Assembly (NCBI RefSeq): GCF_963676685.1
Contig: NC_092355.1
Span: 73,470,001 to 73,534,000, forward strand
DNA: 64,000 nt
From: Mytilus edulis
Taxonomy: Eukaryota
Direction of reading: 5' to 3'
Of the stretch, positions 14,690-54,824 are shown piece after piece. Made by a program: the position numbers and the translations under genes. Position 1 is the first letter of the stretch. Every line of letters starts with the position of its first letter. The notes under the pieces are model-generated. The model saw nothing but the letters and a program-made list of their open reading frames with translations, was not told where the DNA came from and ran no database searches.

Positions 14690-14695
14690 AATGAA

Positions 14696-14786
14696 ACTAC
14701 TATAGGGGGCTCTGTGACCCCCATGATAAATAATTATAACCCCCACTATATACATTCTTATCGCAACAACATCTATCATTACATAA
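14696..14786 (+). repeat. Maverick left TIR
   Basis: actactatagggggctctgtgacccccatg...catctatcattacataa is the reverse complement of 54182-54272 with one mismatch. Confidence 0.97.
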
Positions 14787-15117: not shown

Positions 15118-16188
15118 ATGGGGTTTGAAAGAAAAATGACAAAGTATCGATGTGGATGTTATTCTGAGGAAATGGCTCACGACTCCTTTGATTATACGGA
15201 ATCAAGTGAATACAGAAACATATGTGGAAGACATCCTTCAGAAGAATCAGCAAACGAAGATCATAGCAAGTGTACCAAAATGGTTGAAGTGATAGAAAAT
15301 GCACGCTATGCATTAAGTCAAAATATGGATACAGACACCGTTGCATGCCATTTAACAGCAAGAGAAGTAATTACAAAAGGTCAAAAAGATGAGTTACTAA
15401 AATGTAAATCGAAACAACTTAAAACAAGAAAACTTATCAACATGATAGTAGAATCGAAGAATATATCACTGCATCACCTTAGAATGTCTTTACTCAAGGC
15501 AGGTCAACCTGATTTACTACCTTATATCAGTGAAACAAAACAAAAAGAGAGTGACTACAGTGGTGATGATGAAAAGGATGCCCGACAATCATCTGAAAAT
15601 AGATGTATGATAGAACTACAGGTAGAGTCTTTCGTGGGAGTTAAAGACTTTAAGGGTCAAACATATATCAACATCCGTAATTATCAAACAATTGAAGGAA
15701 AGAAATATCCTACGAAACAAGGTGTGGCACTAACTTTATCACGTTGGTTAGTACTGGAAACTCAAAAGGATTTCATTGACAGTGTTTTTAAACTGTGTTT
15801 GACTGGAGAACAGGTTAATGAAGAACTTATTCATTTAGGCGGGGGTGTTTACGTTACATTAAATTCTAAATACCCTACAGTTGACGTCCGTCAATTTTGG
15901 AAACCAGAAGATAAAGATAAACCTATAGCTACAAAACGAGGAATACCTTTGAATAACATCAAATGGCAAAAACTTTGCGATTCCATGAAAATAATGAGAG
16001 ACTTTGTTCCAGAACTGAATAGCGCAGTCATCTGTAGAAATACCCACAACAACCAAATGGAAATGTTCAAGTGTTCTGAATGCGAACCTTACCACATTGA
16101 TGAGGATGACGACTTTGTAACACAGAATCAAGAAGGAGATTTCGAAATTATGAAAAACATATTAGACCCAGATGGTGAATCTGAATAA
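15118..16188 (+). CDS. Maverick accessory protein: CARD/death-fold-like domain, two PC4/Sub1-like ssDNA-binding domains, C-terminal Cys/His motif
   Basis: VIENARYALSQNMDTDTVACHLTAREVIT...KTRKLINMI...LRMSLLKAGQPDLL fits a CARD helix pattern. FVGVKDFKGQTYINIRNY...PTKQGVALTLSRW and VYVTLNSKYPTVDVRQFW...ATKRGIPLNNIKWQKL fit PC4. CRNTHNNQ...CSECEP at the C-terminus. TATA-like tatataaa at about 15065. Confidence 0.75.
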   Translation: MGFERKMTKYRCGCYSEEMAHDSFDYTESSEYRNICGRHPSEESANEDHSKCTKMVEVIENARYALSQNMDTDTVACHLTAREVITKGQKDELLKCKSKQLKTRKLINMIVESKNISLHHLRMSLLKAGQPDLLPYISETKQKESDYSGDDEKDARQSSENRCMIELQVESFVGVKDFKGQTYINIRNYQTIEGKKYPTKQGVALTLSRWLVLETQKDFIDSVFKLCLTGEQVNEELIHLGGGVYVTLNSKYPTVDVRQFWKPEDKDKPIATKRGIPLNNIKWQKLCDSMKIMRDFVPELNSAVICRNTHNNQMEMFKCSECEPYHIDEDDDFVTQNQEGDFEIMKNILDPDGESE

Positions 16189-16407: not shown

Positions 16408-17573
16408 ATGACACAAAAACAAAAAGAAGCATATGTCAAACGAATATGGACAGATCCAGGTCATCCAGCTGCTTTTGCTGGCCCTAATAAATTATTAAAG
16501 GTTATTCGTCAAGAAGGAAAATTCGACATCAGCAGAGGACAATTGAAAAAATTTTAGCTGGTCAAGATACATACAGTGTTCAAAAACCTTCAAGAAAAAA
16601 CTTTAAAAGGAATAGGGTAGTTGTTGCTGGTTTAAATGCTCAATGGGACGGAGATTTAGCATCAATGGAAAATGTATCGGACTTTAATTCTAAAAAAGAA
16701 AATGTGTCTAAGTTTAATTCTAAAATAAAATTTTTATTAGTATTGATAGACATATTTTCAAGATTTTTGATAGTAAGACCATTAATAGACAAAAAAAGTG
16801 CGACAGTAACAGCTGCATTAAAATCAATTTTTACCGAAGGTAACAGAAGACCCAATACAATTCGTTTTGATTTAGGAGGAGAATTTCAATCAAGTGTGAA
16901 AAAATATTTACAAAAGGAAAAAATTCACGTTTTTTACACATATAATTCACGGATAAAAAGTAACTACGCAGAGAGGGTAATCAGAACTCTGAAGAATCGT
17001 ATATATTCCTATTTTATGGAAAATCAAACATCTAAGTACATAGATGTTCTTCAAAAATTGGTCGACAGTTACAACAACACACCACATCAATCACTGGGAG
17101 GTGCAACACCTGCATCTGTGACAAAAACGAACGAAGACGAAATTCGATACATGCAATATGTGGCCAGAAAAAAGTCAGTTTCTACAGGAGTTATGAAACA
17201 TAAAAAGAAGAGGAGACAATTTTACAAATACAGGGTCGGAAATCAAGTAAGAATTTCGCAATTGAAAAGAGTTTTCGAAAAGGGATATCAAGAAAATTGG
17301 ACTTTGGAATTTTTTAAAATATCTAAAAGATATAGAAGACAACAACAGGACATTTACAAATTAAAAGATACCCTAAATCAGGAATTAAAGGGGTCTTTCT
17401 ACAGGTATGAGATCCAAAAAATTGACCAATCAAAAACGAAACTGTATAAAATAGAAAAGATTGTTAGAAAAAGAAAGTTAGACGGTAAAGATCAAGTATT
17501 AGTAAAATGGTTAGGTTGGCCAATAAAATTTAATTCTTGGATTTTCAAAAATTCCATCAAAGATATTAAATAG
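16408..17573 (+). CDS. Retroviral-like (rve) DDE integrase with C-terminal chromodomain; one 1-nt frameshift at about 16552-16557 (388 aa if corrected)
   Basis: ATG 16408 reads ...WTDPGHPAAFAG...KKF then TAG at 16555. The -1 frame continues LAGQDTYSVQKP...WDGDL (D1), RFDLGGEF (D2), YAERVIRT (E), YNNTPHQS, and chromodomain YKIEKIVRKR...LVKWLGWPIKFNSWI. Confidence 0.92.
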
Positions 17574-17590: not shown

Positions 17591-18037
17591 ATGTCATTAA
17601 TTGGGAAAATGAGCGTGAGACTAGTTGTATCATCAGATGACGGAAAAGATTTATTCTTAGAAAATAAACCACACGACTTTAGAGTCAAATTAAATCAAAC
17701 AATACAGCTGGACGGTTACTGGGTTGTCGCTGTTACCGAATTTACTACAACAGAACGCAACGATTCAGACCAAAAGCCGGAATTGTTTATCTTTTCCGAC
17801 ATATGTCAAGATAGTTTTATTGGAAATAACGAACAACCGTTACTTAGAAGAATATATTTCGACAGAAAAAAACAAAACAATATAGTTTACCATAATCCTT
17901 ATTACATACCCGTTCGATTTAGCGAAATACAACATCTACATTTTTATATAAAGGATGATAAAGGACAAGATGCCTCATTTCTAAAACAGAAAGTGACGAT
18001 AACACTTCATTTGAAAAAATTCCCGTTCGTTTTCTAA
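17591..18037 (+). CDS. Maverick minor capsid (penton-like, single jelly-roll) protein
   Basis: FLENKPHDFRVKL...L.GYWVVAVTEF; FIFSDIC...IG...PLLRRI; YIPV...IKDDKG...ITLHLKK; located in the morphogenesis cluster. Confidence 0.8.
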   Translation: MSLIGKMSVRLVVSSDDGKDLFLENKPHDFRVKLNQTIQLDGYWVVAVTEFTTTERNDSDQKPELFIFSDICQDSFIGNNEQPLLRRIYFDRKKQNNIVYHNPYYIPVRFSEIQHLHFYIKDDKGQDASFLKQKVTITLHLKKFPFVF

Positions 18038-18494: not shown

Positions 18495-19802
18495 ATGGCA
18501 TATTTGAGTGATGATAATAAAGAAATTGGGCAACCAATGGAACTTTCTATTTTTGCCTCTCCTCCTAATCAAGTGGCAATCGAGAAAATGATATATACGG
18601 AAGAACGGCCTATTTCAAATTTGATTAACGACTCTACACCTATTGAAATAGTAATCTCGGGAGCTGGTAATGACTACATTGATTTGAGAAAAAGTCGTTT
18701 ATACGTTAAAATGCAAATTTTAAAAGAAGATGGAACCAAACTTGCACCAAAAGAGAAGGCAGGGATAATTAATTTACCTTTACAGAGTATGTTTTCCAAC
18801 ATCGATGTTTACATGAATAATAAATTAATATCGGCAAATTCTAACAATTATCCGTGGAAGTCATACTTTAAAGTCATTCTATCTTCTGGCAGTGATGAAC
18901 AAAATTCTCAACTGCAAAGTCAACTCTTCATGAAGGACAGCGAACCTATGGACTCTTTAAATTTAAATGCCGGATTTGTAAACAGATACGAATATACAAA
19001 AGAATCTAGGACTTTTGAGCTAGAAAGCAATTTAATGGAAGACACTTTACTTTTGGATAAATATTTGATAAACGGCGTAGACATCTACATCAAACTTTAC
19101 CGTTCCAATGCTCCCTTTTTACTAATGTCTGCAGAGAAGACCCCCAAATACAAAGTAAAAATATTAGACGTATTCTTCAGAACAGCAAGAGTCAAGGTAG
19201 ACCCTGGTGTAATATTGAATCACAGACGTCAAATTAAAGAGTCACCTGCTAAATACCTCATGAACAGAAGCCATGTAATACAAAATGTCATACCTCAAGG
19301 ATCAACTGAATTTTTTTGGGATTCTTTGTTTCCAAAAGCACTGCCTTCTAAAGTCGTGTTTGGACTTGTATCTCAAAAAGCAGCAAATGGACACTATACA
19401 GCCAATCCTTTCAATTTCCAACACTATAACATGTCCAATATCACTTTGAAAGTGAATGGTGTAGAAGTATACGGGTCACCCCTAAACTTAGATTTCAGCA
19501 ATAATAGAAATTACACAGCAGCATATGTTAGGCTATTTGAAATTTGCGATAAATGGCAAAAAGACACCGGTTTAAACATAACTTTAAATGATTTCGGTAA
19601 CGGCTATACATTCATTGTTTTCAACATGGATCCTTCGGACCTACAGGAAGATTTTCTAAATCTCGTAAAACACGGGAACGCCAGGTTAGAAATGAGATTT
19701 AGCGTACCTACGCCAGAAGTTATAAATTGTCTCTGTTATTACCAAACGCAGGCCATTTTGACCTGTGACGAGACAAGAAACATCAACATTGTGGAACCAT
19801 GA
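18495..19802 (+). CDS. Maverick major capsid protein (double jelly-roll)
   Basis: 435 aa; YIDLRKSRLYVK, SMFSNIDVYMN, YPWKSY, LINGVDIYIKL, LPSKVVFGLV, NPFNFQHY, GYTFIVFNM are typical of Polinton MCPs. Confidence 0.9.
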   Translation: MAYLSDDNKEIGQPMELSIFASPPNQVAIEKMIYTEERPISNLINDSTPIEIVISGAGNDYIDLRKSRLYVKMQILKEDGTKLAPKEKAGIINLPLQSMFSNIDVYMNNKLISANSNNYPWKSYFKVILSSGSDEQNSQLQSQLFMKDSEPMDSLNLNAGFVNRYEYTKESRTFELESNLMEDTLLLDKYLINGVDIYIKLYRSNAPFLLMSAEKTPKYKVKILDVFFRTARVKVDPGVILNHRRQIKESPAKYLMNRSHVIQNVIPQGSTEFFWDSLFPKALPSKVVFGLVSQKAANGHYTANPFNFQHYNMSNITLKVNGVEVYGSPLNLDFSNNRNYTAAYVRLFEICDKWQKDTGLNITLNDFGNGYTFIVFNMDPSDLQEDFLNLVKHGNARLEMRFSVPTPEVINCLCYYQTQAILTCDETRNINIVEP

Positions 19803-20248
19803 ATGGAAAACAATTAACCAAATTATTAACCGACTACGAATGTTTAAAAAAGACATTTATCCATATCATCGATCTTAATAATCTTCACGATATCGTCCAG
19901 AATCATTATCCACAAGTTTATATAATCAATCCGGGAAAACATTGGATATGTGTAATTTTCTACAATTCCATAGAAGCGGAATATTTTGATAGTCTTGGAA
20001 AACAGGTTAATTTTTATGGTACTAGACTAGTTAATTTCATAGCCAACAACAGTCAAAGATGTACTTCAATCCAGAGACAAACACAAGCTAACACTTCAAA
20101 CATTTGTGGACTGTATGTTGTATTTTTTGTAACAATGAGATTATGTTTTAAAATGTCATTGGAAAATGTATATGATATGTTGTCTGTAAATAGGCATGAA
20201 AATGATCGATTTGTTAAGTTATATTTTTTAAAGGTATATTCTAAATAA
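19799..20248 (+). CDS. Adenain-like cysteine maturation protease
   Basis: PGKHW (His), EYFDSLG (Asp), QANTSNICGLY (Gln/Cys); ATGA overlap with the MCP stop. Confidence 0.9.
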   Translation: MNGKQLTKLLTDYECLKKTFIHIIDLNNLHDIVQNHYPQVYIINPGKHWICVIFYNSIEAEYFDSLGKQVNFYGTRLVNFIANNSQRCTSIQRQTQANTSNICGLYVVFFVTMRLCFKMSLENVYDMLSVNRHENDRFVKLYFLKVYSK

Positions 20249-20329: not shown

Positions 20330-21022
20330 ATGACAGTAGTTCATTTGTCACAAACAAACGCGATGGAGAATGATCGAACGATGTTACCCTTTTCTTCGCC
20401 GACAACAATTTGTGTAGTAGGACCAACTCAGGCAGGCAAATCGATGTTTACTAAAAGACTCATAGAAAATGCCAATGTCATGTTCGTTGAACCACCAGAA
20501 AAAATATTGTATGCTTATTCCGAATATCAACCACTGTTTGACGACATGCAAGAACAATCCAACTTGATATTTCACGAAGGTCTCCCGGATAAACAAAAAA
20601 TTGAAGAATTTACGGAAAATGGAAAACATTCATTGATTATTTTGGACGATCTAATATCTAAAATAGTACAATCGGAAGAGCTTTTGCATTTATTTTCTGT
20701 TACAAGTCACCATAGAAAGGCATCCGTAGTTCTCATTTCGCAATCTTTGTACCCTCCAGGAAAATACGCTAAAAGCATTTCTTTGAATTGTGCCAATTTC
20801 GTTTTGTTTCGTAACCCTAGAGATATGCGTCAGCTGATAACCTTTGCATCGCAGATTCTCCCAGGCATGACGCAATATTTCATGGACAGCTATTTAAAAG
20901 CGACAAAAGAGAGGTATTCGTATATGCTCGCTGACCTTTCACCCCACAGAGAAGATCGACAATACATGCTCAGAACAGGGATTTTTCCCGGTGACACGTG
21001 TGTAGTCTACAGACCTATATAA
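20330..21022 (+). CDS. A32/FtsK-like genome packaging ATPase
   Basis: Walker A GPTQAGKS; Walker B LIILDD; SHH..ASVVLISQ; ISLNCANFVLFRNPRD. Confidence 0.92.
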   Translation: MTVVHLSQTNAMENDRTMLPFSSPTTICVVGPTQAGKSMFTKRLIENANVMFVEPPEKILYAYSEYQPLFDDMQEQSNLIFHEGLPDKQKIEEFTENGKHSLIILDDLISKIVQSEELLHLFSVTSHHRKASVVLISQSLYPPGKYAKSISLNCANFVLFRNPRDMRQLITFASQILPGMTQYFMDSYLKATKERYSYMLADLSPHREDRQYMLRTGIFPGDTCVVYRPI

Positions 21023-21645: not shown

Positions 21646-21687
21646 TTATCATATAATACAGTGGTTTTCAAATAAAAAATATAATGA

Positions 21688-24600
21688 TCACTTATTTACA
21701 CTACAATAGCCAAATGGTAAAGTTGTCAAGTCGTTTAATAACCGTCTCTTCGTGTATACCATTCTGTAATCTTTCTCTTCGACCCTGTTATACAATTTCC
21801 TTTTAAGGGCTAGTCTTGAAATTTTGCGTGGATTCCTCGTTTTGATATACTCGATATTTTTATTCACTACAACATCGCAAATAGAAGAAAAATTAATTAG
21901 ATCTGAATTGGTTTTATTGTTTAAGGAAAAGCCTCTAACTTTACAGGTTTCTCTTCCAGAGGCCATCTTATAGGCGTAATTCTTAGGACCTCCAGACACA
22001 AAATGTGTAATATGTCCATCTTCTGGTGAAACTTCGTTTGTCAATTGACCCAAGTAATTCCCTATGGGTAGTGTTTTTGTTAAGTTTTTATCTTTATCCC
22101 GAAAGATAATCGAGTCCGTATCCACGTACAAAGCGTCGGTACCAGTACGTTCCAGTAATTCGTACAGTTTGGTCCTTGCCCAACAAGTAGTAAATGAAGC
22201 TATGAAAATGTTAGTTTTGACGTCCATAGGAATAAAAAACGGATGATCCGTATGTTCCATTTGTACCAAATCTTTACTAATGATGTGAAAATCTATAACC
22301 TCTTTTCTAGGATCAGACAGTAACTGAAAAAAATTCTCTGCCTCGTTCTCGTGGAAAAATGTAGTTTGTTTCATATTTAGACGTTGACCAAATTTACCCC
22401 AAAAACTGTTTAAAGCAATTTTTGCCAAGCTACGAAGTCCTGGATTTTTTTTAATTTGATTATAGTCCAAATGTATTCCTTCATTTTTAGCGTAGTCTGC
22501 TATGTAATCCCGTTTCTGTTGTTCCGTTCTGCACTCTTCTGGAAACCCCGATGCTTCTTGTTTTAATTTCAAAAAGAGGTTGACATATGCATCGAAAAGT
22601 CCTCCTTTGCCCGTTCGAGGATTGTACGTTCGATGTTCTGGAAAGTGATATACTTCGTATATCTTTTGAATTGCATATCCTTTCGAACGTGCCAGATTCA
22701 GCTCTGGAGTACACCAAGTTCCGACAATAGCTCTTTCTTCATCTGTACAGGTACAGTCATTTTGGTTTTCGTTATCTGCACATTGTTTACAGAGTGGAAA
22801 CTTCAATTTTCCATTAGAAACGTACGGTAGAACAGGATGAAACAGATGCCTGTTAGGCAAGACTTTGACCTTCGCGACTCCGAAATAATTGGAAATATCT
22901 TCGAAATCCGATGTTATGATGACGGGATGACCAACTGGATATTTTCCATATTTGTTGACACTGGGATACAGACTACAAAATAAAAAAAAATGATATAACA
23001 AGGGATGAAATCATTTGAATAATTATATCATAATCCAGATTCTAAGAATTGAGATTACCTCGTAAAGTCGAAATACTCAATGGTCTCTCCTGGTTCTGTA
23101 CATTCGTGATAGAGCGTAATTGGATTGGTCCTACCGCCAAAAAAACTTTGTCTAACGTCTAAACGATCTTCGATCTCACACGTTGATACGTAGTCTCTCA
23201 TAGGGTCGTCTAAATCCAGCTGGTGGTGAAATTCGTGCTCCCAAATGCAGACATACTTGTACCCCAGACGTATCAGTTCTCTCTCTTTCTTTCTGGTTAG
23301 GTAGTACAATTCATTCATAGAATGTTTTGTCATTGGATGTGTTGTCTTTGTTCTATCGTGTGGGTAGCAGGAAGGACATCCATGGAAAACACAACCTTAA
23401 AATATATAATAATATATATATATATATATATATAATATATAATGTATATACATATATATATATGTGTGTATATATAATATATAAATTTTATAAACATATT
23501 AATATTGCCGCCGCCGCCGCCACCACCGTTTCGTCTCATACATTTACCACTCACCTAAGAATTCGTAAGCTGTCTTTTTTGGGAACTCCACGTAACCGTC
23601 TAGTCTGTAGTTCGTTCCAGGTACTTTGTATTCACCTCTACCGTTCAAGGCGTGTTGTATGTGGAGTCGTTTTCCCTTACGTCTGCTGGTTTCCATGATC
23701 CATTCCAACCACTGAATGGAAACTTTGCTAAAATTATCCCTTGCAACATAACCTTCTGACGGGACGACAGCAATCGGACTTTTGACAAATGTCGTTTTCT
23801 CTACTTTGTATGTATCCGAAGAATGTAAAGCTTTTTCGGTTACCCATTCACCACGGGGCAAACGTACAAGAAATTCACCACTTTCCTGTTTCGATGGACA
23901 CTTCAGAGTCTCGTTATTCGACAAATTTGTCAAAACAGTTTCATATTCTTCTTCCAGAAACAATTGTCTGTAGATCGCCTGACAGGCAGAGGCAATCGTG
24001 ACGTAATCGTATGGATCTATGCCTTCGGTAAGTTTTTCGTTGCTAACCGAAGTAACTTCCATCATGATTTTTCGAAACTGCATGCATCCACGTCTTAAAA
24101 TGTCTACGTCCGATACACAGTACTTGTACATCTCTGACTGAAAATCAAATGTTTTGCTCTTGTTGCTATTGTACCATTTCCAAAATGTGTTGGCTTCTTC
24201 TTCGCCCATGTATTCGATTCCGTAATAGTATGCCTCTGGTTGTGGCCCTTTATAAGACTGGTTTTCTTTCGTGTTGAACAGATGTGGAAAGTAACCTTTT
24301 TGTAATTCCTGTAAACCGAAACACTTGGGAATTTTCGACAATTTCATTCCTATGAAATTGATCGAATCCAGGAAGGTCAGGTCTAAATTCTTTGACACAT
24401 GCATATATACTATCTTCGAACCGTTAAAAATAATTTTATTGGGTTTTACGCTGTGGTGTTCTATCAGGGCATTCAATACGGGGTAGTTGTCAAAACCTTT
24501 CGCATTGTGTGCTATGAGTACCGTGTTTTTGTAATGCGGCGTCATAATCTGGGAACAAAATTCGTATGGAACGTCTTCGCCTTTAAACACCCTTTGTCTG

Positions 24601-26991
24601 TAACCGCAACTGCTTTCGCATGGAAGTGTCGTAGTATTCTTTTTGAAAATTCTACACTTATCACAGCGACTTCCACAAGTGTTACATTTTGAATCCGCGG
24701 TTAATTCTACATTTTCACAAATGACGCATGTGGACTGTAAAACCGCATAATTCACCTTGTGTTCCGCTAATCCGCACCATGACTGGTTACAGTTTTCACA
24801 AATTTTACACGTCTTACATCTTTCATCTGCTGAACATTTTTGTAGACAGGGTCGTCTAGGTACATGACCGTCCTTGCATTGATTATTATAACTGCATGTA
24901 ATCCGATGACAATGGGTACACTCTTTACATTTCCTACATCTATCTCTGTCCGTGCATGATTTCCCACACGGAACGTTAGGTGCATACCCTTCTTCGCACG
25001 ACATCTTTTCGTTTTGGGTTGTTTCGAAATCGTAAAAAAAGTATTTTCTCGGTTCTTTCTTCGTCGTATCTTTTAATGTCTTACGTTGATAACACCAATG
25101 TGTACCTATGTGATATTCGAAACAGTTTTTACATCGCCACTCACCGCATGTATGTTGTTCAGGTGAGCGTTTCTGTCGACACAGAATCTTACGACAGTTT
25201 TTACACTGGTAAAATCTTTCGCACATCGTTTTGCTATTTTCATTGTCCCTTTTAGACGTTTTGGTATTGTGTCTGTCATAACAGTCCTGGCTGCGACATG
25301 TTTGATTGCATTGAGAGCAAAGAACAGTATGATTACTAACGCGACACAAATTGCTACCACATACGGCACATGTGTCAACGCAAGAGTGTTTTCCTTTATT
25401 TTTGTAAGGTTTTAAGCAAGATTCGCAAAAATACCCATAGCCAAAAAAACCATTTATACTTCCTATACCTTGAAAATGGCCCGTTCCATCGGTATTTTCT
25501 ATCAGATACAAGTAAATATTTTTACGCTGTGCTTTGGTACTGACTCGACAAAACTTGTTGCCCAATCTGGCAGAAAGTACCAAAATATTAACGTCCAATA
25601 CATTTTCAAATTGTTCGATATCTCTTATACTTAAAGCTTCGTCTGTTGAAAGATTGGCTTCTTTGCATAATGTTATAGCCATTGTTTTACTGTAACTTGT
25701 ATTCTTTAGAGCAGATGCACTCACGTGTTTGAAATAACTTTTAGTCGTCATTCCGTGTTTTATGACTTTTTGAAAAGTGTTCATGTCTTCGTCGTTTTTT
25801 GTTGTTTCCCTCCATTTTTCTAATGGTACAATTTTACAGAGTTTTAAAAAACATCTACCAATAGCCGTTGCCAGACACATTTTATCTTCATTGCATACCT
25901 GTAAAATCGATTTTTTCAAAGCCAGGGAATTCGATGTCCCTTTCAGGCGAATTATTGGCAATCTCCCACTACCTCTAGGTACTGTTATATTTCCTATCGT
26001 GACATGCATTGACGTATCTAAAGGTAGGTTTTCCTCTGAATTCAGCACATTCTCGACAGCTTCCATTACTCTTTGTGAGTTTATGTTTGACCATTTATCT
26101 AAGGGTACAACGATGGAATTATTTAGTTCGGGATGAGAGATGATAACTCGTCCTAAATCGTTGTCATTGCCTTTGGCTTTGTTTAAAACATCATCAAACA
26201 TGTTTTCCAATTCCTTTTTAAGATTACGTAGTTTTTTACCCTTCCACGTATCATTAAATTTTACTTTATACGTGGTCTCTTTTGCCAGATTTTTAGAGAA
26301 TGTTTTTTTGTCCGGATCTTCGAAATAAATAGGGGTTTTCTTCGGGTTCTGCGCCGTAACCCTCTTCTTCCGAGTCATTCATGTTCAGTGTGATATGTTG
26401 GTCAGTACCAACAAGCACATTTTCTATGTCTGACCCATTAGTATTGGGGCAACTGGTGGAGTTAAAAGGTAATAAATTTGCGAGGATGGAGTCTCCCAAA
26501 TCATCCGATGGACAGTGTAGAGGTGTAACCAGTTCGCTTTCCAACGTCGGGGTATATTGGTTAGAAAAGCTTGTGGAGGGTACGTCTGATATATCGCTGG
26601 AATAGTCAACGGTAGTATTATTGGCTATATTTACAGTTGTGTTTTGACCTGTGGTCATGTCACCCAAAATTTCATGGATTTCCAAATGGTCTCTCAACTC
26701 CGTTGATAAATAAAATCTCTTTTTACACCATGTACACGTAAGTAAAATTACGAGCTTGTCTAATACTTGAGAGTTGTTTAAGAGACAGTTATCTGTGGCC
26801 CAACTTATCAAACTGTTGGCGTCAGTGAAACTGTTTAGAACATCTGTCCAATTGATTGACTGAAAATGATTTATTCTGTTTTGTACCAAGATATGATTCA
26901 TTAGACCATTGTCTGCGGCCCATTCTTGTAACTCATTTAAAGATGTGAAGTTGTTGATGATATTGTTCAAGGTTGGTGGTTTGTGTTTCAT
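21688..26991 (-). CDS. Protein-primed family B DNA polymerase; 3 exons (26991-23555, 23395-23059, 22972-21688); one +1 frameshift in an A7 run at 26303-26309; about 1685 aa if corrected
   Basis: ExoI FFYDFET; ExoII AHNAKGFD; ExoIII YCVSDVDIL; Vsr-like domain RLDGY...YEFLGCVFHGC...WEHE; motif A YFDFTSLYP (formed by splicing); motif B KIALNSFWGKFG; motif C YVDTDS; GPKNY. N-terminal C2H2 finger CTWC...HLEIH. Confidence 0.93.
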
Positions 26992-31767: not shown

Positions 31768-33097
31768 TTTTGTTTTGAAGAGAACGGAAAAGAGGTCGGG
31801 GGTGAATGTAGACTGGGATCCCGCTATATATAATCACCTTGTTCTATAAATAGACAGGTGGAGACCAGCGCCATTTTAGTACTTTTTAGTACTATTTAAT
31901 GCGCAACCAGTCGCGCAGGAGATTCCGGATGTTTCATGGGAATTTCCTAACTAGAATACAGCTGTCAGAATGGAAGAACGTCTGCTACAATGAAGATCGA
32001 CAATGTAACCCATAAGCTCATTTAAATGGTATCGTCAACAAATAATTGAATATATATAACATGTAAAAATATTTATTATAGATATCAGTACTATAAAAAA
32101 AAAGTTCTACCCCAAAAAATGAGGATTTAGATATATTTTATTTTTATTTTTGGGCAGTTGCTATTTTTACAAAAGTGCCAAGATATATATAACAAAAAAT
32201 AAACAGTCACAAAAAACATTTTCAAATCAATTTATAAAAGATGACATACATGTAGACTCCTTTGTAGAAAGCAGTATATTAATATCATATACATGTATAA
32301 ATTATACATATATGTAAGTTGTTTTCATCTCTAACAAACTAAACAAGTGATTATTGGACATTTTTTTCTCATCTTAAACATATAAAATACTGTCTTCTTT
32401 AAGATTTCATCATTTTCCCAGCTAGCTACTTTTTCAATTTCATAACTTTTTCTTCATTAAGGTAAACAAAATTTTGACCTGTGTTTCCCAGTATTTTGAT
32501 TAAAGAAATGATGAAACTTTCTCCATACAAATAAAGCAAAAATTTATTTGTACACCTGTTATTTGTACAATAAAAGGCTAATTACAGGATAAAATGTCAT
32601 ATTTTGATTGGCTAATACGTTCATTTACTCTAATGCAGCAGATTTTTAATTATTCTTAACCATCAATCATGAATGAATATTTAATAGACTGCAGTCTTAA
32701 TCAATTTTTAAACAATGGAAAATAAATACTTGTTATTAATATAATTACATTAGATATATGTTTCATTATAATACATTATTCTGATTGACAAACTACACAT
32801 CACATGTTATTCTTTAAGCAATTGCATTACACAGTTAAACTTCTTTTTGTAACTTCATATGGTTGTAAAAGTGTTGACAGTGCACACTTTTTAGAATGAA
32901 GCACTTTCGCACTTCATACAAAATGAACTTTGTTCAATGCTTTTACACCCAATGAATTTTCACAAAGAATCATTCAATTCTTGAATAGTTGTATAAGGAA
33001 CTTATTTCATTTTAAATGCTTAATTGTAATAAAATCAATGATATTTTTTTTTACAGATGGAAAGCTGACATCAAGCAGCAAATTGAACAACTATACG

Positions 33098-33240
33098 GAC
33101 AAGATGGAACACTATTAAGTTAATAAGTACTAGAAAGACAAGATGGAACATTATTAAGTTAATAAATACTAGAGAGACAAGATGGGACATTATTAAGTTA
33201 ATACAGACAAGATGGATAACTATTAATTTAATAAGTACTA
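33098..33240 (+). repeat. Minisatellite, about 4 copies of a unit up to ~39 bp
   Basis: gacaagatggaacactattaagttaataagtactaga with variants. Confidence 0.85.
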
Positions 33241-33695
33241 CATATATTAAAATAAGTAAAAATAGTAGTGGTAACAAATTTAGTCATTGAAGGTGATTTC
33301 TGGATATTATAGTCTTCAAAAAAAGAAGATATGGTATGATTGAAAATGAAAAAAATATCACCCAAAGACATTGGAACCATCGTAATCATCAGCAAATTAT
33401 ACTGGAAAATAAATACACACTTCGTGTACCATTATATACCTAAAGCTCTTAAGCTTTGCTGGTTCCAATTTAGAATTATTCAGAGAATTTTAGGACATAA
33501 TTCACTACTTAACCATGTTTACAAGATGAAAAAAAAATGGTTATGAGTATCATATGGTTTTTGGCACAGTGGAAGAAAAACAATTTACCAAACAAAGTCA
33601 CATAAAGTATTACCAAAAAAAAGGGAACACAAACTTACAGAAATACATTTCATTTAAAAACCTCTCTGTAATGAAATATGATAAATCTCAAAGAC

Positions 33696-35035
33696 TTAGT
33701 GGTGTCTTCTTAATCTATCATGTCTATCTTGGACTGGTTTATTTGTTTTCTTTGTCTGAACCCTCAACTCTCATTAGAAATAGGATAACTAAAACTCTAT
33801 TCATCTAGTAGGTCATTAAAGCAAAGAAAAAGGATTACGTTCATAGTATAAGGGAGATAATTCCTATTGATGTAATAAAAAAAATGTACTGAATTTTATT
33901 GGGACAATATCAGCCAATCAAATTGTGAAAAATTACTCCAGCGATCAGCCAATTTTTTTTTTTTTTTTTTTATTTATAGATGAGAAAAGACTTATGCACA
34001 AACATGAACAACAAGACAAGAATGAATTATATATGCAGAATTTGAAATTAAACAAAAAGCAAGGTAAGTTCTAGGTAAGTTCAATTTGTGACACAGTTTG
34101 AACATCAACAATAAAAAAGGGACATAATTATGTATCATATTAATCCAGTTTTTTTTTTATTGATATTAAATAAAAAAATCGTGGTTTTTTAAAAATCATA
34201 TTCCTGAATTTAAAGGTGGAGATTATTTACCATTATCGTTAAGTATGCTAACAACAATGCTATTAAGAGATGTGGTATGATTTCCAGTGTTACAACTACC
34301 TATCAAAGTTCAAATTTAGCTGATTTAAGCAATTGCATGCAACCGTACAGCATTCAACTATGAGAAAAATCCATACCTTATTGTCAGCCCTAAAAGACTC
34401 CAACCTGATAAATATAATACATTTCAATTAAAAAAACTAAAGGAACTGTTTCTTTCAGAAAATTGATCTTTGTTCAATGGAATAATAAAGACAGTTTGTG
34501 TATATGGTCATTGGTTAAAAATAAAAGCTTTATTGGCAAGGGTTACAAATTTTGAAAAAAGGGAATTTTAAGCTATTAAAGGTATAGGATAAATGCAGAA
34601 TATACTTTTATTGTAAAAATTTATTTGTATGAGCTTGAGGTGCATATTTTAAATTAAATAATACAGAGGAAATAAGCAACATATAAACACCATTTAAAAA
34701 AAATAGTGGGGTCTTCTTAATCTATCATGTCTTTCTCACACTAAATTATTTTTATTCCTTGTCTGCACCCTCAACTGTCATTAGAAATAGGTTACCAAAA
34801 ACTTTTTTAAAGCCAACATTTATATGTGTACCTGTTAATACCAAAAATTGGTTGATTGCAGGATAAAATCTTGTATAAAATATTTTTATTTATAGATGTG
34901 AAGAGACTTATGCACCAACCTGAACAAGACAAAAATGAATTATACTAGTATATATGTGCAGAATTTGAAATTAAACAAAAAGCACGGTAAGTTCAATTTG
35001 TGACACAGTTTGAACATCAATAATAAAAAAGGGAC
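33696..35035 (+). repeat. Diverged direct duplication (33696-34125 vs 34705-35035), each copy holding an exon-like unit
   Basis: Shared gtcttcttaatctatcatgtct...tcattagaaatagg and ttatag|atg.gaa.agacttatgcac...aaaaagca.g|gtaagt...gggaca. Confidence 0.75.
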
Positions 35036-35690
35036 AGAATGGCGGGTCCCTCCTTAGTTACCCCTGGTCAACTGTGGATTTGACGGCAACTTTTAGCCAA
35101 TGAAAAAAATTGTTACATCCAAATTGCATTAGAATATTGGTTCTTTGTCAAATCTAATAAGTAAAGACATTAAAATTGAAAATGGAAATGGAGAACATAT
35201 TAAAGAGACAACAATCCTACCAATGAGCAAACAACTGCTTACAGCCACTAATGGGTCTTCAATATAGTGAGAATCTCCTGCACCTGGAGGCGCTCATACT
35301 AGTTCAGGGATAATTAATGTCATACTAAACTCCGAAATATATACACAAGAAACTAAAATTTAAAATCTAATAAGACTAACAAAGTCCAAAGGATACTTGG
35401 ATACACGTACTTGGGACATATGCAACAATGAGACAACAATACAATATGCACAATAAAACTCATCATAACAAAAAAAGTACATGTATGTGGTCATTGCTTA
35501 AGATTAAAAGCTCCATTGGCTGTGTATGGATACTTATACATTCCAATTACACACCTATGACTACTTTGTAAAATGCATAACTGTTTTAATTTCATGCAAT
35601 ACAGGCTTTTTAGAGTTTAAAAGAAAACTGTGTTAAATGATGCATACTTTTAATCTTTCCTTTATATAGTTGATTTCTAATACCAAGAGG

Positions 35691-38600
35691 ATGAATGTAG
35701 GTCTAGGTACACCTATCAAGCAGAGAGAATGTGATAGAGATTTTTGTTTAGTGTGTGGGAAATTTGCAAAGGAAGCCCGTAGAGTAGAAACCATCCGGAA
35801 GTTAAAAGGGAAAGATTACAGTTTAAAGGAGTTATTGAAGAAATATGGTGGAATTAATGTTGAAAGTGGAACAGTATGTAGAAACTGCAGTAAAAAAGTT
35901 GACTCTCTTCACAAAAAGAAAACTGATTTTTACAATGAATGCCAAAAAAATGCTGGGATGTCAAAACGAATGGCTTCCTCACCACATATAAATCCACCAA
36001 AGAGAATAAATATGTCAACACCGAAAACATCTACTCAATATGCAGCAGTTTTCAGTGACAGTGAAGAAGAAGAAGATGACATTTCCATCATTGGTTTACA
36101 TTTATCAGATGAAGGTAATTAAGTTAAGATATATGTTAACTTAAACCTGGCAACAATGAGTTGGGTGGTGCCCAATGAAACCCTTGCAAAAATGCAGATA
36201 ATACAGATTCTTTACTATAAAGTTTCTGGGGGACCAGGAACCATTGTAAATACATATAAATGTAATTTTGTATACTTATTAATCAATAACTTTAAAAATT
36301 TAATAATTAAGACATATAAGCTAACAAACATTATAAAAGAATTAAAATACAATTTATGGTAGCCACACTATTGTGCTGGTTTTAACTTTTGTCCTTGTAC
36401 TTTGAGCATATCCAAGGGATCATAATTTCAGAAAAACCACGGTGGCTGAAATTATTTTCACCCTTTGATGTGTGGTTTCATGTGAATAAATGTAAGTTAA
36501 GTTTTTTTTTCACACTTTTAAATTTTATTTTTAATTGGAGTTATTTCCCATTGCTCAGAATGGTACTAGAATTAATTTTTTTTGTTGATAGGTGGCCTAG
36601 ATTGATGCTTATGTTATGATCTATTTTAATTTATGAGTTATCTAAGTTTGAACAGGAATGGTGTAATTAATAAGTATATGGTTAAATACATGTAGTATAT
36701 CAATGAATGTATCTCTTCAAATGGTTTTAGTCAGAAGTTGTAAAAATATCATTATGACTATTTTTAAGTTATTTGTCTTTTTAATGTAGAAGTCCCAGTT
36801 GATCCTGTTTGAGTTTCAAGATTTCCAAATATCATTTTCATGCAGGAATTATGGTTTGCTGTCACTCTGACAGACTCTTGTTCTGAATCTTATATGGGAA
36901 CAATGCAATTAAAGAGGCATATCATCAGAAAAACTCATGCGTACAAAAATTAACCAAAGCAGACAACATTCAAACTTTCTAAAAAAAAGAAATTGAAAAC
37001 AAACCTTTAATAATTTCAATGTATCTGAAGCTCTTTTCTGGATTTACCTTCATCAGAAACTCTCATAGTCAAAGCCAAAGAAGGGAAGAAAGATACCAAA
37101 GATACCAAAAAGGACAGTCACACTCATTTATTGATAGATAAACTGACAACACCATGTCCAAAAAAGAAATAGACATAATTTTTTATATAGAATAGACCAC
37201 TGGTGTACCGTTTCAATGGTTTTACACTTGTAATTTTGGGGACCATCATAGCTTGTTGTTCGGTGTGAGCCAAGGCTCCATGTTCAAGGCCGTACCTTGA
37301 CCTATTATTGTTTACTTTATAAATTGTTATTTGGATGGAGAATTGTCACATTGGCCCTAATATCGCATCTTCCTATACTTAAATAACAGTTTACAGAACA
37401 CAAAATAAAAAAACTAAAGACTAAGCAACACAAACTCAACCAAAAACAGTTGGTGGTATGAGGTGCTCCAGAAGGGTAAGCAGATACTGCTCCACATGTG
37501 GCAGCAGTTGTCTTGTTCAAGTTATTACAAATCGTGCAAATAGTCTAACTGGGTAAAGTCACATGCAGGAAAAGAGAAGGGGTGGTAGTAACTACATAAG
37601 GAGCATATATATCTGATTCCATCTGTCAAACTGCTCATCGATAACGATCAACCACCTCGTGACGGCCTCCCTCTAAATGAATTAACAAATTTCTTGGAAC
37701 ATAAGGTCGATATCAGATGTTGTTTAAGGGGGAGCACACTTGAATTAACTTATCTAAGAATATCAGTTAAAATCTGTTTGACAGTCAAAATGTAGGAGAC
37801 AGTAAAAATGTGTTACACAGTAAAAATCTTATTTTCAAATTTGGTTCGATGAATCAATCTTTTTTATTCTGAAAATAGATTTTATTATTTGGAACAAATT
37901 TGTATACTTTTCTTTATTTTTTCATAACATTTTTATTATAGATACAGAAACAAACCAAGCACATGTATCAGGTATCCTATCTTTACAGTCTGCATCATCT
38001 TTATCAGGATCATCTTCACATCCATTTTCATTAGATTCATTGACTTCTTCTGCTACATCTGAATCGGCAACATCCTTTCAAACAGCTTCTATGACATCTT
38101 TGGCTTCATCTAATTCTGTAACATCAAACCAAACAGGTTCATGCTCAACATCTACTGATCACATATATTCCAAGAATAATGAGAAATCTTCAACCGTAAA
38201 ATCTAAGGGTAAAGAAGATAAGCAAAGATCAACAATTCCTGCTGCCATAGATCACGATTATATTGTATCTAAGCCTTCCCCTGTTGTACAAAATATAATG
38301 GTAGATAAAATCATGGATTTTAAAAACAATATAAATATAAATTCAAAAACAGAAATGAAAGAAGCAGACACAGAAATTCTTATGTCTATCTTGAAAACAA
38401 AAAACAAAAGAGAAGTTATCAAACATCTCCTCACAACTGAGGGTTTTAAAGACAGCATCCTGTGCCTTTTGATGGAGGAAACAAATTTGATGTCCAATCG
38501 TCTAAGAAATAGGAAACTATTTTATGTTAGTGAGTTGATGAAAAAGAGACCAGAGGATTTGAAATTTTTTAAATGGAATGAAATTATTTGTGAGTTCATG

Positions 38601-41600
38601 GTAAAATTTCCAACAGTTTTCAGTTTGATATTGACAATGTTCTTAACGCCACAAGACATGGAGAACAAAGATAAAATAGAAGCTATTATACCAAGAATAG
38701 GAATGGTTTACAGCATGCTAATGCAGGGAAGAAACAAAGAGCTCAGCAGAATACAGCGAATAACATCACTGTTTTTGTTTGACAACATATGTGATCAAAA
38801 GGTAAATAAATGTTTTATACTATTCATGTACAGAGAATTCATCCTTGATTCCTTTATAATGCAATGGTGATCAATCTGGTATTGTTTTTTCTAGGTGTTA
38901 TACTGGAAATAGAAAAACAAGCAAGAAGGTGGAATATATATCTATGTGTTCAAATAAATTAAAAATTCATGATGATAGCTAATAAGAAAACTCTCCCTAA
39001 GAGACTAAAAGCCACAGAAATTAACAACTTTAGGTCAGGATACAGCCTTTAACAATGAGCAATTAATAACAATGTATAATGTCGACTCCAATTTTTTATA
39101 AATACTAAAAAAAGAAAAGAAAATTATTAATGAAATGAAAAATCTAGCAATACAATACATCAAATACTTAAAGGGTACTTTGAACAACTGTGTGCAGTGC
39201 AGTATGGTACCATGTGAGGTATAACTGGAGCCAGTAGACTTGTGGTATAATAATACTGTTCAGAAAAAAACTAAACTTTTTTTCCTGAAAAGAAGATGGT
39301 TTTATTTAGGATAAATGTTACACTTCTGGTTTTAATGTGTTTTCTTTTCAAGTTTAGACAATTCAGAATACCTGTGAATACAATTAAACTTCAATACACT
39401 GAATACTAATTTGTTTACTCACTTAATTTGATTTTAAAAGAATTATTACTTTTAAAATATACTTCATATTAAGGAAGATTCATTTAACTTGCAGGTGTTT
39501 GATAGACTTCAGACGGTTGGCGTATGCCTAAGTTATGAAAGAAGCCTACAAATTGTAGAGATGATTGGAGGCCATTTCAATGATAAGGTAGTGCAGCTGG
39601 TAAAGGACAACACTCGTTTCCGAATCATTGGTGACAACATCAATTGGACTGTTGGTGTTCATGACCAACGAATTAACAACAAACAGAAAATGATGCATGC
39701 TTTTGGTTCAGCAGTGATAGTACAAAACCTGACCTTCACCAATCTAGACAGAGTTGTACCACAACAGCTTTATAGTCAAACACCAGTTCAAAACTTCATA
39801 CCATCAGAGGAAGATTACAACCTTATAACAACTGACTACATCATTCTAATGTCAAGGGTTGTTTTTGAACACATTCCATACTTCAAAAAATTTTCAGATA
39901 TTGTTCCAATTAACATCAGCACACCATGTAGTCCTAATTTGAAAAAAAAGTCAGAAGTCATACCATTACCTGTTCTGTTAAAAAATGAGCAATACTATCA
40001 AGATGTCGTAGGGATACTTGATTTCTATGAGAAATGTTTAAAAGATGCGCATGATAAAGCAGGAAAACAACTCCATGATCAGACATATCAGATAGGAGGA
40101 GACCAGCTGACACGAGAGAGATTCTCAGGAGCAAAGTCACTCAGGGCACACCATCTTAATCCTAGTGACAAATTCACCCACTTGAGTCCAATAACTTTTG
40201 AACTTTTCCACATGTTGATGTCCTACCTCAAAATGTCATTGAACCTCACATACAAACAAGAAAGTGGTCAGGATATTGGAACCTTAAAATCACTCCAAGA
40301 TAGACTTTCCAGAAAAAATATTGGTGACAATGTGAATGATCACTATGAAGCAAATAAAGACTTTTTTATTTCTGTTACAGACATGTACATTGTGGAGTGT
40401 TTCTTGGAGTTTTTTGGTATGGAAGATAAATATTCAATGCCAACTAAACATGTGCCACCAACCTTTAACACAAATGATGAAATGAAGGAATGGTATTTCA
40501 GTACTGTGGAGATGATAGTCAAACAACATGTTTTCCTCCAAACTATAACCACAGGTGCAAAACAACAAATGCTGGAAGGTATATATATTTATATATATAT
40601 ATGTGTGTGTGAGCATGAAACATTAAATGAACTGAGTTCACTAACCATCATTATAAAATACCAGGATAAAAGCAACTATTTGTCCAAATACATTTGCTGT
40701 GTACATTACAATTCACCTTGGTCAAATTAAACATATACTGAATCCTTGATCAGACACACTGACATAAAAAGCAGGTTTAGACAGGCAGCAAGGGTTATAT
40801 AAATTGGGCGTAAGATTTTAATTTCTACTATAGATGTTTCAATTAACACTGATCAAACTATAAACTAACTTTCAGCATGAATAAGTAAGAAAACAGATTT
40901 GTTTTTTTGATTAATTAATTATGACAGAATTCTAAACTTCAAAATCTGTTCTGATTGTGATTATATACTGCTACATTTAAATTTGAGGATGAATATACCT
41001 GTATAAATCAAATTGATGGAAATAACTCCCCATACAGAAATTAATGCTAACAAAAGCACATAAGTTTCACATGTGAAGCACATGAGATGCAAGTAAGAAT
41101 TGTATGCAAATCAGGTTGCTCATATGTGCAGTTTGGTAGTTCATATATATCTAATTTAGAAAACTAATTCTTTACAGTTGATGGTCAAGTTTTCCGATTA
41201 GTTTTGGCGAATGGGAAAACCATCACACTCATGAAGAAAACAATATCAAAGTCAAAGAAAGGTGATCAGATTAGTAATTATGGAAATCAAATACTCCAAC
41301 TAGGATTGTTATTTAAAGACTTGATAGATATGATACATATGCCAGAAAGAGTAAGAGGGATACGTTTGTTGAAACTTGCAATGATGTATTTTAAAGTCTA
41401 TAATAATCTATCTAAGTATGCCTTAGAAATACTCAGACTCCTGGTACATCAGTTATGTACTTTGTCTGAGAAAGGCTCCAATGAGGAGTTCTACGCCATG
41501 TTTGTGAATACAGGAGGAAAATTTGAAACACATATTCCTGCTGATCGAAGAATGGAGTACCTTGTCAAAGAAGTGAAACAACATGTTAAGCATATGTACT

Positions 41601-41914
41601 CCAACAAAACAGAAGAGAATATTTCAAACCGTACCAGGGCAATATCTGGAATTCGTGAAATTTCAGTAAATTTTGACCAACAGTCAGGGGTAATTATACG
41701 CTCAAAAAAACATTCCGACAAATCATCTAAGGAAGATGAACTGGCTATTTTATCAGATTTACGAGATATTAGACCATTTCATTGTCAACCTGGTAGGAAA
41801 CATTCATGTTTTGGAGAAATGTCATCATCTGTTGTTCAAAACCTTGATGTGGACCATTATCACAATTGGATCAATACCAGAAAAGTTAAATTTGCTTTGG
41901 AAAATGGGAACTAA
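35691..41914 (+). CDS. Academ-type DDE transposase, 4 exons (35691-36114, 37942-38801, 39495-40578, 41178-41914), about 1034 aa, intact
   Basis: GT-AG introns of phase 1, 0 and 1 keep the frame; N-terminal CLVC...CRNC zinc site; Ser/Thr linker; IIGDNIN (D), GGDQLTRER (D), FELFH, PADRRMEYL (E). Confidence 0.85.
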
Positions 41915-42599
41915 ACATTGACATAATCAAATGACTATTAATAGTCTGTAATTTGCCAGGTGCAATTTGTTTTTTTGTAACTTGTTTTCTTTGGATTGAT
42001 CTGAAGATTGAAGATATTTCATCAGATTTTTGTAGATTGTTGTTATGATGTATTTGATAATTACATGATTTTCCCTGGTTGGGTGAAGGGTTTGACACCT
42101 TCAAACTAGTTAAACCCAACCATAGTCTGTTGTTGTTGGTTGATCTAATATTTGTATTTTTTTAAATTTTTTTATATGAAATAGAGCACTTAGTTTTCTA
42201 AAAAAAAAATCTCACTTTTTTCAAGTGGGACCTTTTATAGCTGACTATAGGTTTATCTCATTGTTAAAGGCTATACTTATTTGATTGCCTATGATTGATT
42301 ACATTTAATTCTTTTGAACTTTGGTCATGAGAGTTGTCTCATTGGCAATCTTACCACATCTCCATATTTTTATGACAGTTCTTCTTAATTAAAACTACTA
42401 TATAGCTTTTATCCAATCAATCATTTTTTCTTCAAATATATTCCACCTTTGGTTTGTATTGATATTTGATATGTAAAGGTCATAAAGTTTTTTTTTAAAC
42501 CTGGTTAATGGTAAACATAAAATCAAAAGAACTAACATACAATATGCATATAGCTTTTTATATACTACAAATATTTTCAACTTTTTAACTAGTTACATG

Positions 42600-44290: not shown

Positions 44291-44558
44291 AATTTGGAGT
44301 TATCTCCCATTGTTTTGACCAACTTTTTGTGAATGAAGTATTAGTGGTACATTTTATTTCTAACAGTCAAACATTTTAATTGAAAGGTGGCAAATTAGGT
44401 GTTCTTCAACTTAATTATTTGTTTACTTCTGAAAATCATAACAAGATAGGCCCATTTTCTTGTGTTTTTTTTTATAAAAATTTGTTTAAACACTGAATTA
44501 GCCCAGTCAATCCATTTTAACTTTCGACTATTAATATGCAGTTTTAAATTGTGTAGAT

Positions 44559-53941: not shown

Positions 53942-54039
53942 GGTTAAAATATTATGACAACCTTTCTCTTTCAAGTCATCAATGTAAATAAACTTGTAAA
54001 TAAATAACAACTACTCTTATTTGTCAGTTATGGTTGCTT

Positions 54040-54181: not shown

Positions 54182-54272
54182 TTATGTAATGATAGATGGT
54201 GTTGCGATAAGAATGTATATAGTGGGGGTTATAATTATTTATCATGGGGGTCACAGAGCCCCCTATAGTAGT
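54182..54272 (-). repeat. Maverick right TIR
   Basis: Ends ...gagccccctatagtagt, followed by the TSD aatgaa. Confidence 0.97.
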
Positions 54273-54824
54273 AATGAATTCATTCATTCATTTTTATCCT
54301 CATTTCGCAAGGTAATCTTTTATATTTTAGTTACGTTTATATGATATAATAGGCATTTGAGAAAAAATTTCACTGCATCGTTTGTCTTTTTGTAGTTTGT
54401 TCCAATATTTTTTTATAATTTTAATAAAGTTTTTCACCATTTGGTTATTTTTTGTAATAAGAGTAAGTGGATATTTTTCTTGTTCTTGTATTTATAAAGT
54501 TTTTTTATAACTAGTTTAGAACCAAATCGAAGGACTAACGAGTTCTGTCCCCTAGTTGTTTTAAGGTGTAATGGAATAAGATTTAGATTAAGTATGCTTA
54601 TTAGAAATATGCGCATAAAAAGTGCGCACAAATCTCAGTGTGTAATTCTAAATTCTCAGCGTGTAATTTCAAATTCTTAGTGTTTGTTTTTTCAGTTTAT
54701 TTAATCTCGGTGTGTATTTTTGAAATCTCAGTGTGTAATTTTCAATTCTCAGACTAATTTTCAATTCTCAGACTAATTTTCAATTCACAGTGTGTGTTTT
54801 CATTTTTTGTAATCTCAAAAGTGT

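Follow-up and report, generated by a model that had tools for sequence, protein, structure and literature searches.

Spliceosomal-type introns within the polymerase gene of a Polinton from Mytilus edulis, shared with related elements

A Polinton (Maverick) in the genome of Mytilus edulis carries a gene for a protein-primed family-B DNA polymerase (pPolB) that is cut inside two conserved motifs by intron-like segments. This raises the question of whether the segments are introns that the element transmits and the host removes, or marks of a decaying copy. The window in which the element lies is the whole stretch of DNA analysed here, 64,000 nucleotides of contig NC_092355.1 (assembly GCF_963676685.1, positions 73,470,001 to 73,534,000 of the forward strand), its first letter being position 1. 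The answer that we consider highly probable is that the pPolB introns are GT-AG introns, shared with related Polintons and likely removed routinely by the major spliceosome of the host, giving the full enzyme.

The element spans 14696-54272, with 91-bp arms that are 99% complementary and AATGAA flanking both ends, and measures about 21 kb once a nested 18.8-kb transposon is subtracted (Table 1). A CARD-PC4 gene, an integrase, a likely capsid gene, a protease and an ATPase lie on the plus strand and pPolB on the minus strand; the integrase, capsid-like, protease and ATPase genes are single frames each, and pPolB has two introns. Among the proteins by which Polintons/Mavericks are recognized, a protein-primed family-B polymerase, a retroviral-type integrase, a packaging ATPase and an adenain-like protease were found. 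Inverted repeats, a 6-bp duplication, an integrase, a protease, an ATPase, a capsid-like gene and pPolB likewise appear in the accessible portions of two published accounts of these elements (PMC8097293; 10.1101/2023.08.22.554363). The last exon of pPolB matches Pfam DNA_pol_B_2 above its cut-off (E 6e-18), and 1518 longer relatives were found at E<=1e-50, with PF03175 in all 120 of the 120 listed. For the integrase, the rve match reaches 29.9 bits, below the Pfam cut-off of 32.6, and the Chromo match is above its cut-off. No Pfam match was obtained for the capsid-like gene (18495..19802) or for the 148-aa gene (17591..18037), the Atlas neighbours of the latter being unnamed viral proteins of low recognition value.

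Table 1. Coordinates of the Polinton and of its features within the window
Feature	Position	Strand	Evidence or remark
Left target-site duplication	14690..14695	.	AATGAA
Left terminal inverted repeat	14696..14786	.	91 bp, starts ACTACT
CARD + PC4-domain gene	15118..16188	+	Pfam CARD E 6e-07, PC4 E 1.6e-17
Retroviral-type integrase + chromodomain	16665..17573	+	intron-free; rve E 6.8e-07, Chromo E 1e-06
148-aa gene, possible minor capsid protein	17591..18037	+	position and weak look-alikes
Candidate capsid gene	18495..19802	+	Atlas feature score 0.98; clusters with PF21738 DJR-like on 15-30% of members
Adenain-like protease	19799..20248	+	Peptidase_C5 E 6e-04, just below cut-off
A32-like packaging ATPase	20330..21022	+	Pfam Pox_A32 E 4.4e-05, above cut-off
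pPolB last exon	21688..22972	-	LYP... to stop, motifs B and C
Intron 2	22973..23058	-	86 nt, phase 2, motif A (DFT-S)
pPolB middle exon	23059..23395	-	337 nt, second half of Vsr-like domain to motif A
Intron 1	23396..23554	-	159 nt, phase 1, Gly codon of EFLG/C; (GGC)5 run and TA tract
(GGC)5 run	23507..23521	-	33 nt past intron 1 donor
pPolB long first coding exon	23555..26378	-	Cys-rich; exonuclease motifs (by eye); first Vsr-like half
pPolB N-terminal part	26293..26991	-	out of register with long frame
Nested 18.8-kb transposon	31809..50579	.	TAG...CTA ends; DUF6589 and DEAD-helicase pieces
Right terminal inverted repeat	54182..54272	.	ends AGTAGT
Right target-site duplication	54273..54278	.	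AATGAA

Several further features of the element were observed. PC4-domain genes occur near both of its ends (15118-16188, plus strand, fused to CARD; 53495-54010, minus strand). The transposon nested at 31809-50579, which resembles AcademH, has a 9-10-bp direct repeat on both sides, with DUF6589 on the plus and the DEAD-helicase on the minus strand, and is absent from the sister copies. At 29113-30460 (minus strand), a multi-exon cargo gene was recognized by eye, with a Thr-rich repeat exon, a short exon, a hydrophobic stretch and a Ser/Thr/Pro-rich tail; its product looks like a single-pass membrane protein, and its last frame has no Pfam match. Extra copies of the right part of the element, matching the window from 27594 or 30185 to 54275 (L093, L095, L094; G000:C11), have no high-identity pPolB match nearby and are possibly non-autonomous or truncated derivatives.

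Read on the minus strand, intron 1 (23554-23396) is 159 nt long (GTGAGT...TTTTAAG, GC 23%) and follows the first base of the Gly codon in YEFLG, and intron 2 (23058-22973) is 86 nt long (GTAATC...TTGTAG, GC 22%) and interrupts the Ser codon between DFT and LYP after its second base; the coding DNA around both has a GC content of 37-40%. A preliminary description of this DNA had given the same coordinates, lengths and end sequences, which proved exact. It had also held that spliceosomal-type introns split conserved motifs here, and joining the exons indeed restores unbroken EFLG/C and DFTS with open frames: in the frames that follow from the phases, the middle exon (337 nt) reads without interruption as CVFHGC...YFDFT and the last exon runs open for 427 codons. 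For intron 1, a single frame-keeping GT/AG pair exists within 40 nt of the borders; intron 2 allows four, and the pair originally proposed is the only one that leaves the residue count unchanged. The signals are of the U2 type, with GT donors, AG acceptors and 60% and 80% pyrimidines in the last 20 nt of introns 1 and 2, respectively. The acceptor region of intron 1 is weak and TA-rich, and a simple scan gave no clear branch motif in either intron. Unspliced RNA would end before the polymerase domain, as claimed earlier, since intron 1 carries an in-frame stop at which read-through in the window ends (YEFLGEW-stop); in each of the seven introns read (7/7), retention of intron 1 brings a stop 1-37 codons past the donor, ahead of the polymerase domain. 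Judged from the DNA, both segments are real GT-AG spliceosomal-type introns, exact at these borders.

By pattern matching, the motif-A string is uninterrupted in 114 of the 120 listed relatives and the site-1 string in 94 of the 120, the two being mostly about 111 residues apart. Intron 1 falls in a region that had been labelled Vsr-like, and the label is sustained by a profile of nine uninterrupted relatives that matches the E. coli Vsr structures 1ODG, 1VSR and 1CW0 (E 0.0014-0.002) in an alignment that includes the HGC motif; with Pfam by itself the domain went unrecognized, the best match reaching E 0.07 in one of five proteins. This Vsr nuclease domain sits between the exonuclease and polymerase parts of pPolB. 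A Vsr domain inside pPolB2 is described for molluscs and marine nematodes in the accessible text of 10.1101/2023.08.22.554363, and the window pPolB shares the Vsr domain with the mollusc pPolB2 that bears this insertion, a likeness of domain content.

Junction reads had been proposed as a check. Reads were compared for 4 of 24 runs on 21600-23395, a region covering intron 2; these runs carry no RNA record, and run X3 is RNA by guess. In X3, a 299-nt contig (depth 4.5, 72 nt on its short side) joins 22972 to 23059 exactly, and the skipped segment 22973-23058 has CT..AC ends on the plus strand. The exact skip of intron 2 was seen in one of the four runs, as this one low-depth contig. It could conceivably come from a DNA allele without intron 2, since the RNA status of X3 is guessed and a single low-depth contig is involved. 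The contig of run X2 stops two bases into the intron 2 acceptor, that of run X1, which may be DNA, retains intron 2, and about 6% of the raw RNA run X21 gave two reads, neither on the intron 2 junction. For intron 1, splicing is suggested by sequence, conservation and public gene models.

Those gene models concern a sister family that is 99% identical to public proteins named M. galloprovincialis, clustered with M. edulis ones. In this 99%-identical family, the public eukaryotic gene models P0001, P0121 and P0122 join both junctions, and ORF-type gene calls split the gene into pieces of 81, 441 and 1187 residues, the 81-residue piece ending YYDFTR. The gene structure of an intron-bearing pPolB is already implicit in public data. 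The prediction that ORF-based surveys would see this gene as broken is borne out by the fragmented ORF calls and fails for eukaryotic annotation, which joins both junctions.

As assembled, the window's own pPolB copy is no working gene. Its frame breaks at 26293-26378, where a 232-codon N-terminal frame and a 944-codon frame overlap out of register; at the place of this break, L061 and L074, which are 70% identical to the long exon, have one 1199-codon frame. A close sister copy (C11, 98-99% identical) carries a stop codon within its last exon, a separate break near the start and several insertions. Of the window's subfamily, this genome yielded two copies, and both are damaged.

A protein search of the same genome gave 93 matches, of which 77 candidates were scored and 30 loci returned; 25 loci were scored for introns, L055 and L057-L060 being left out as partial or degenerate. 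At site 1, 12 of the 25 loci carry an intron (11 by script and L032, where a 1.28-kb insertion breaks intron 1), 12 are contiguous and one is unscored; at site 2, four carry an intron, 20 have none and one is unscored. The bearers fall into three families, in which intron 1 follows the first base of the Gly codon (family A, the window and L032-L034; phase 1), the second base (family B, L035 and L036; phase 2) or the third base (family C, L037-L042; phase 0), with GTRAGT donors and AG ends that each permit a single reading. As read from these loci, intron 1 stands at three consecutive positions in three related families, which is new. In this genome, intron 2 occurs in family A alone; family C has a different phase-0 intron just ahead of GGRT, and family B has neither extra intron. 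The termini of family A (ACTACT...AGTAGT in the window, L033 and L034) are the reverse of those of families B and C (AGTAG...CTACT).

Both introns occur at the window's sites and phases in L033 and L034, whose last exons are 80% identical to that of the window in protein. Between the window and L033, dN is 0.118 and dS about 2.9, near saturation, in the last exon (415 codons), and dN is 0.18 and dS 2.6 in the first 85 codons of the middle exon; the family C pair L037/L038 gives dN 0.030 and dS 0.182. By these estimates, the exons flanking the shared introns are under strong purifying selection. Intron lengths vary among copies (159-331 nt for intron 1; 86, 87 and 113 nt for intron 2) and include every residue modulo 3, a free variation that is expected of spliced sequence. 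At their separate loci, the elements of the window, L034 and L038 are each flanked by an exact 6-bp target-site duplication, and that of L033 by one with a 3-nt offset; none was seen for the L035 element. The last-exon proteins of L039-L041 are identical, that of L038 nearly so, on three contigs, and L065 and L075 are 99.7% identical across 6.5 kb. Purifying selection together with separate target-site duplications indicates that the introns were passed down within a lineage that went on inserting, and are not signs of decay.

The search outside this genome covered 110 loci, from metagenomes (best 80 of at least 366 confirmed), viral contigs (4) and genome contigs (26). At site 1, three have an intron (L096, L150, L106), 67 have none and 40 are unscored, and L097 starts inside a site-1 intron; all external site-1 introns are in phase 1, as in the window. 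At site 2, five have an intron (L104-L108), 79 have none and 26 are unscored. Site-2 introns are all in phase 2, in a Ser codon that starts with AG, and 64 of the 79 intron-free external loci have a TC codon there. The proposed comparison of intron positions across related Mavericks places intron 2 at the same site in L032-L034 and L104-L108, and shows intron 1 shifted by one or two bases between families. Among the viral contigs, a single-protein scan confirmed 0 of 16 candidates and an alignment scan gave four distant loci; no free virus of the intron-bearing clade was found in the viral contigs scanned. Additional GT-AG introns were observed at other pPolB sites in L104, L106 and L118 (PSxG/Y, AHNMK/GYD, DYLG/ELT), with up to four in L106. 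Polinton polymerases also turned up in bacterial genome bins from animal-associated or environmental samples (L180-L205; P0005, P0027, P0047), where they are probably host DNA within the bins.

In a tree of 47 last-exon proteins (30 loci and 17 public proteins; quick search, SH-aLRT support without bootstrap), families A, B and C form one clade with L096, L097, L150 and P0002-P0004 (SH-aLRT 99), families B and C pair as sisters (SH-aLRT 100), and L104-L108 group apart in a clade of their own (SH-aLRT 100). Counting loci alone, two changes are needed at each site. Forcing all site-2 bearers into one clade was rejected (p-AU 0.013, for a group named after the tree was seen). On this tree the motif-A intron recurs in a separate clade, and intron 2 was likely gained in parallel, at an AG-bearing Ser codon, in the window's family and in that other clade. 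P0002 and P0003, inside the site-1 clade, show uninterrupted motifs; if they are plain ORF calls and intron-free, intron 1 would have been lost in them or gained repeatedly.

A second shared trait lies within intron 1. The (GGC)5 at 23507-23521 is the sole run of at least three GGC/GCC units in the 64-kb window, and each DNA-checked site-1 intron of the clade has at least three such units about 25-80 nt from the donor. A stricter 8-mer, GCGGCGGC on either strand, occurs in 6 of 7 representative introns (L038 being one base off) against 0 of 12 other introns, in 0-13 of 300 dinucleotide shuffles, and at 11 places in 407 kb of window and fetched DNA, comprising eight intron 1 copies, one remnant and two proline-coding runs. 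Site-1 introns are related by descent, so this count is not independent evidence. On the sense strand, the run reads GGC in family A, L096, L097 and L150 and GCC in families B and C, the introns of which add 3-4 ACGCGT copies; the run aside, the intron 1 sequences of the three families do not align. It is striking that the run appears to have survived while synonymous sites saturated, and its inversion would point to an element acting at the DNA level. That intron 1 keeps a (GGC)n run, inverted in two families while the rest diverged, is also new, and the run may be regulatory. At L092 (G000:C7:19285100-19285460), two inverted partial copies of family-C intron 1 stand side by side, likely a rearranged remnant.

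Our model is as follows. Host RNA polymerase II would transcribe pPolB and the major spliceosome would remove introns that a free or integrated ancestor had gained. Polintons are copied DNA to DNA, and because this copying has no reverse-transcription step, the introns would pass to every descendant. For intron 1, a single gain in the ancestor shared by a bivalve-associated clade is likely, and two slides of one base each would have followed on the branch to families B and C. Intron 2 probably arose later in the window's family and, independently, in another clade. Left unspliced, intron 1 would end the protein within 1-37 codons, without a polymerase domain, leaving the N-terminal part of pPolB. 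In Polintons, this part includes a terminal-protein domain according to the accessible text of PMC11161782.

Two observations speak for intron-like insertions into dead copies after integration: the window copy and its sister show damage and further insertions, and in the same pPolB region L049 contains an AT-rich insertion that lacks GT-AG ends. Such late insertions are nonetheless extremely improbable as a source of the two segments, given that the same positions are occupied in separately inserted copies and in elements from other samples, that donors and acceptors are canonical throughout, that purifying selection extends across the shared introns and that an exact junction occurs in reads. 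The preliminary description had named missing spliced reads together with sister copies lacking the segments as grounds against introns, and L032-L034 were found to carry the segments. Moreover, three intron-1 queries match, in the genome, Polinton copies, one rearranged remnant and two short AT-rich stretches only (these being lower bounds), and we regard the idea of dead-copy insertion as already largely refuted. An origin from introners was also considered and rejected: the same queries gave at least ten, two and four genome matches, nearly all of them Polinton copies and not dispersed, in a search that skips simple repeats and so yields lower bounds. A further proposal casts the introns as a regulated switch, splicing or retention differing by tissue or germline and gating replication, much as the third intron of the P element is a known tissue/germline splicing switch. 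Retention of intron 1 would stop translation ahead of the polymerase domain in 7/7 introns read, a GC-rich run is conserved in that intron, and the X1 contig retains intron 2. We find a switch quite unlikely, however, considering that X1 may be DNA, that the GGC run has opposite orientations between families, as would be expected of a DNA element more than of an RNA splicing signal, and that intron number and place vary by family, many relatives having none. The tissue or germline control point suggested earlier is unsupported, and intron-free Polinton polymerases with 1400-codon frames are present in the same genome (L045, L048, L051).

The three positions of intron 1 could also reflect separate gains at a favourable AG/G site, with no slide, for phases 1, 2 and 0. 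L106, in the other clade, has at this same codon a phase-1 intron that lacks the GGC run (it is among the 12 introns lacking GCGGCGGC), and its close sister L108 has none, so that site 1 can be hit or vacated again; the introns of families A, B and C are unalignable apart from the run; and P0002 and P0003 lie in the clade with uninterrupted motifs. Against this, all DNA-checked clade members carry both the intron and a GGC/GCC run of at least three units, the 8-mer is absent from all 12 other introns, and the sister families B and C (SH-aLRT 100) have GCC runs and 3-4 ACGCGT copies in common. One-base intron sliding is described as real, at less than 5% of introns, and parallel gains as rare among close lineages, in the accessible text of PMC3488318. 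On balance, separate gains seem to us somewhat unlikely. The cases in that source likewise involve positions one base apart and separate lineages sharing an AG-bearing codon site (protosplice gains); unlike them, the present series has three consecutive positions in one mobile-element clade of one host genome, with an internal GGC marker.

Returning to a single intron 1 that slid, we also entertain, as a rather doubtful extension, that it is an old regulatory cassette: a selected GC-rich DNA element, inverted once and carried along as the borders slid twice. Its elements would be the GGC run and, in some families, G-tracts or ACGCGT repeats. If so, it might serve as a promoter, enhancer or pause site inside the gene, or adjust how far the intron is retained; the latter would yield an N-terminal part (terminal-protein and exonuclease) without the polymerase domain, dividing replication functions in the manner of adenoviruses. 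A counterpart of the adenovirus major late promoter inside pPolB was rejected, since the structural genes lie past the 3' end of pPolB on the other strand, pointing toward it, and their position and orientation would keep a promoter in intron 1 from driving them.

The adenovirus E2B polymerase and pTP offer a nuclear protein-primed system that needs host splicing, with leader exons and a polymerase body in one exon. A T-tract followed by AG (about 27020-26998) lies just before the pPolB start in the window, in families A-C and also in the intron-free L072 (at least one intron-free family), and a pyrimidine tract with AG was noted before the start at L061, L062, L064, L065 and L072. This suggests a further splice acceptor and hence a spliced leader upstream, and the acceptor-like site would recall the E2B leader exons. 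As the T-tract and AG also precede pPolB in L072, leader splicing may be a general feature of these elements, and the internal introns would not necessarily make them newly dependent on splicing. Unlike the uncut adenovirus polymerase body, the window pPolB has introns that cut conserved motifs inside the body.

Among Polintons, genes of intact vertebrate Mavericks are reported as intronless (PMC8097293), and a nematode Maverick-type element has core genes without and cargo genes with introns (10.1101/2022.07.12.499685), both according to the accessible text. In contrast, the window polymerase itself has two introns, and the intronless-core-gene trait of the vertebrate description does not extend to it. 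That trait is descriptive and stands outside the definition of the Polinton class. Introners are reported inside dinoflagellate Polinton-like elements in the available parts of PMC11957031 and PMC12166617; these, likewise, are intron-generating insertions within integrated Polinton-type elements, but they are repeated transposons that mostly entered after integration, whereas the pPolB introns appear non-dispersed, old and inherited under selection. In the literature searched (Repbase, Kapitonov and Jurka 2006, supplements and subscription papers aside), no report of spliceosomal introns in an animal Polinton polymerase was found, including the accessible text of PMC8502044, PMC12220804, PMC10294476, PMC12721341, PMC11296320 and PMC11161782. 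In the portions available, a large survey states that endogenous viruses lack introns (PMC10120064), and another demanded 650-residue matches and 900-residue ORFs (10.1101/2023.08.22.554363).

The intron-bearing Polinton is a real, well-supported variant of a known element class, and its most interesting additions, as read from the sequences, are the three-phase series and the conserved, inverted GGC run of intron 1. Surveys based on ORFs would miss intron-bearing families or count them as fossils, despite purifying selection and recent insertions, and dependence on splicing ties transcription of these elements to the host nucleus. For the study of intron evolution, a DNA-to-DNA replicator with many families per genome provides a compact test case, in which one codon pair hosts introns in three consecutive phases, a marker lies inside the intron and a second site has probably gained introns in parallel.
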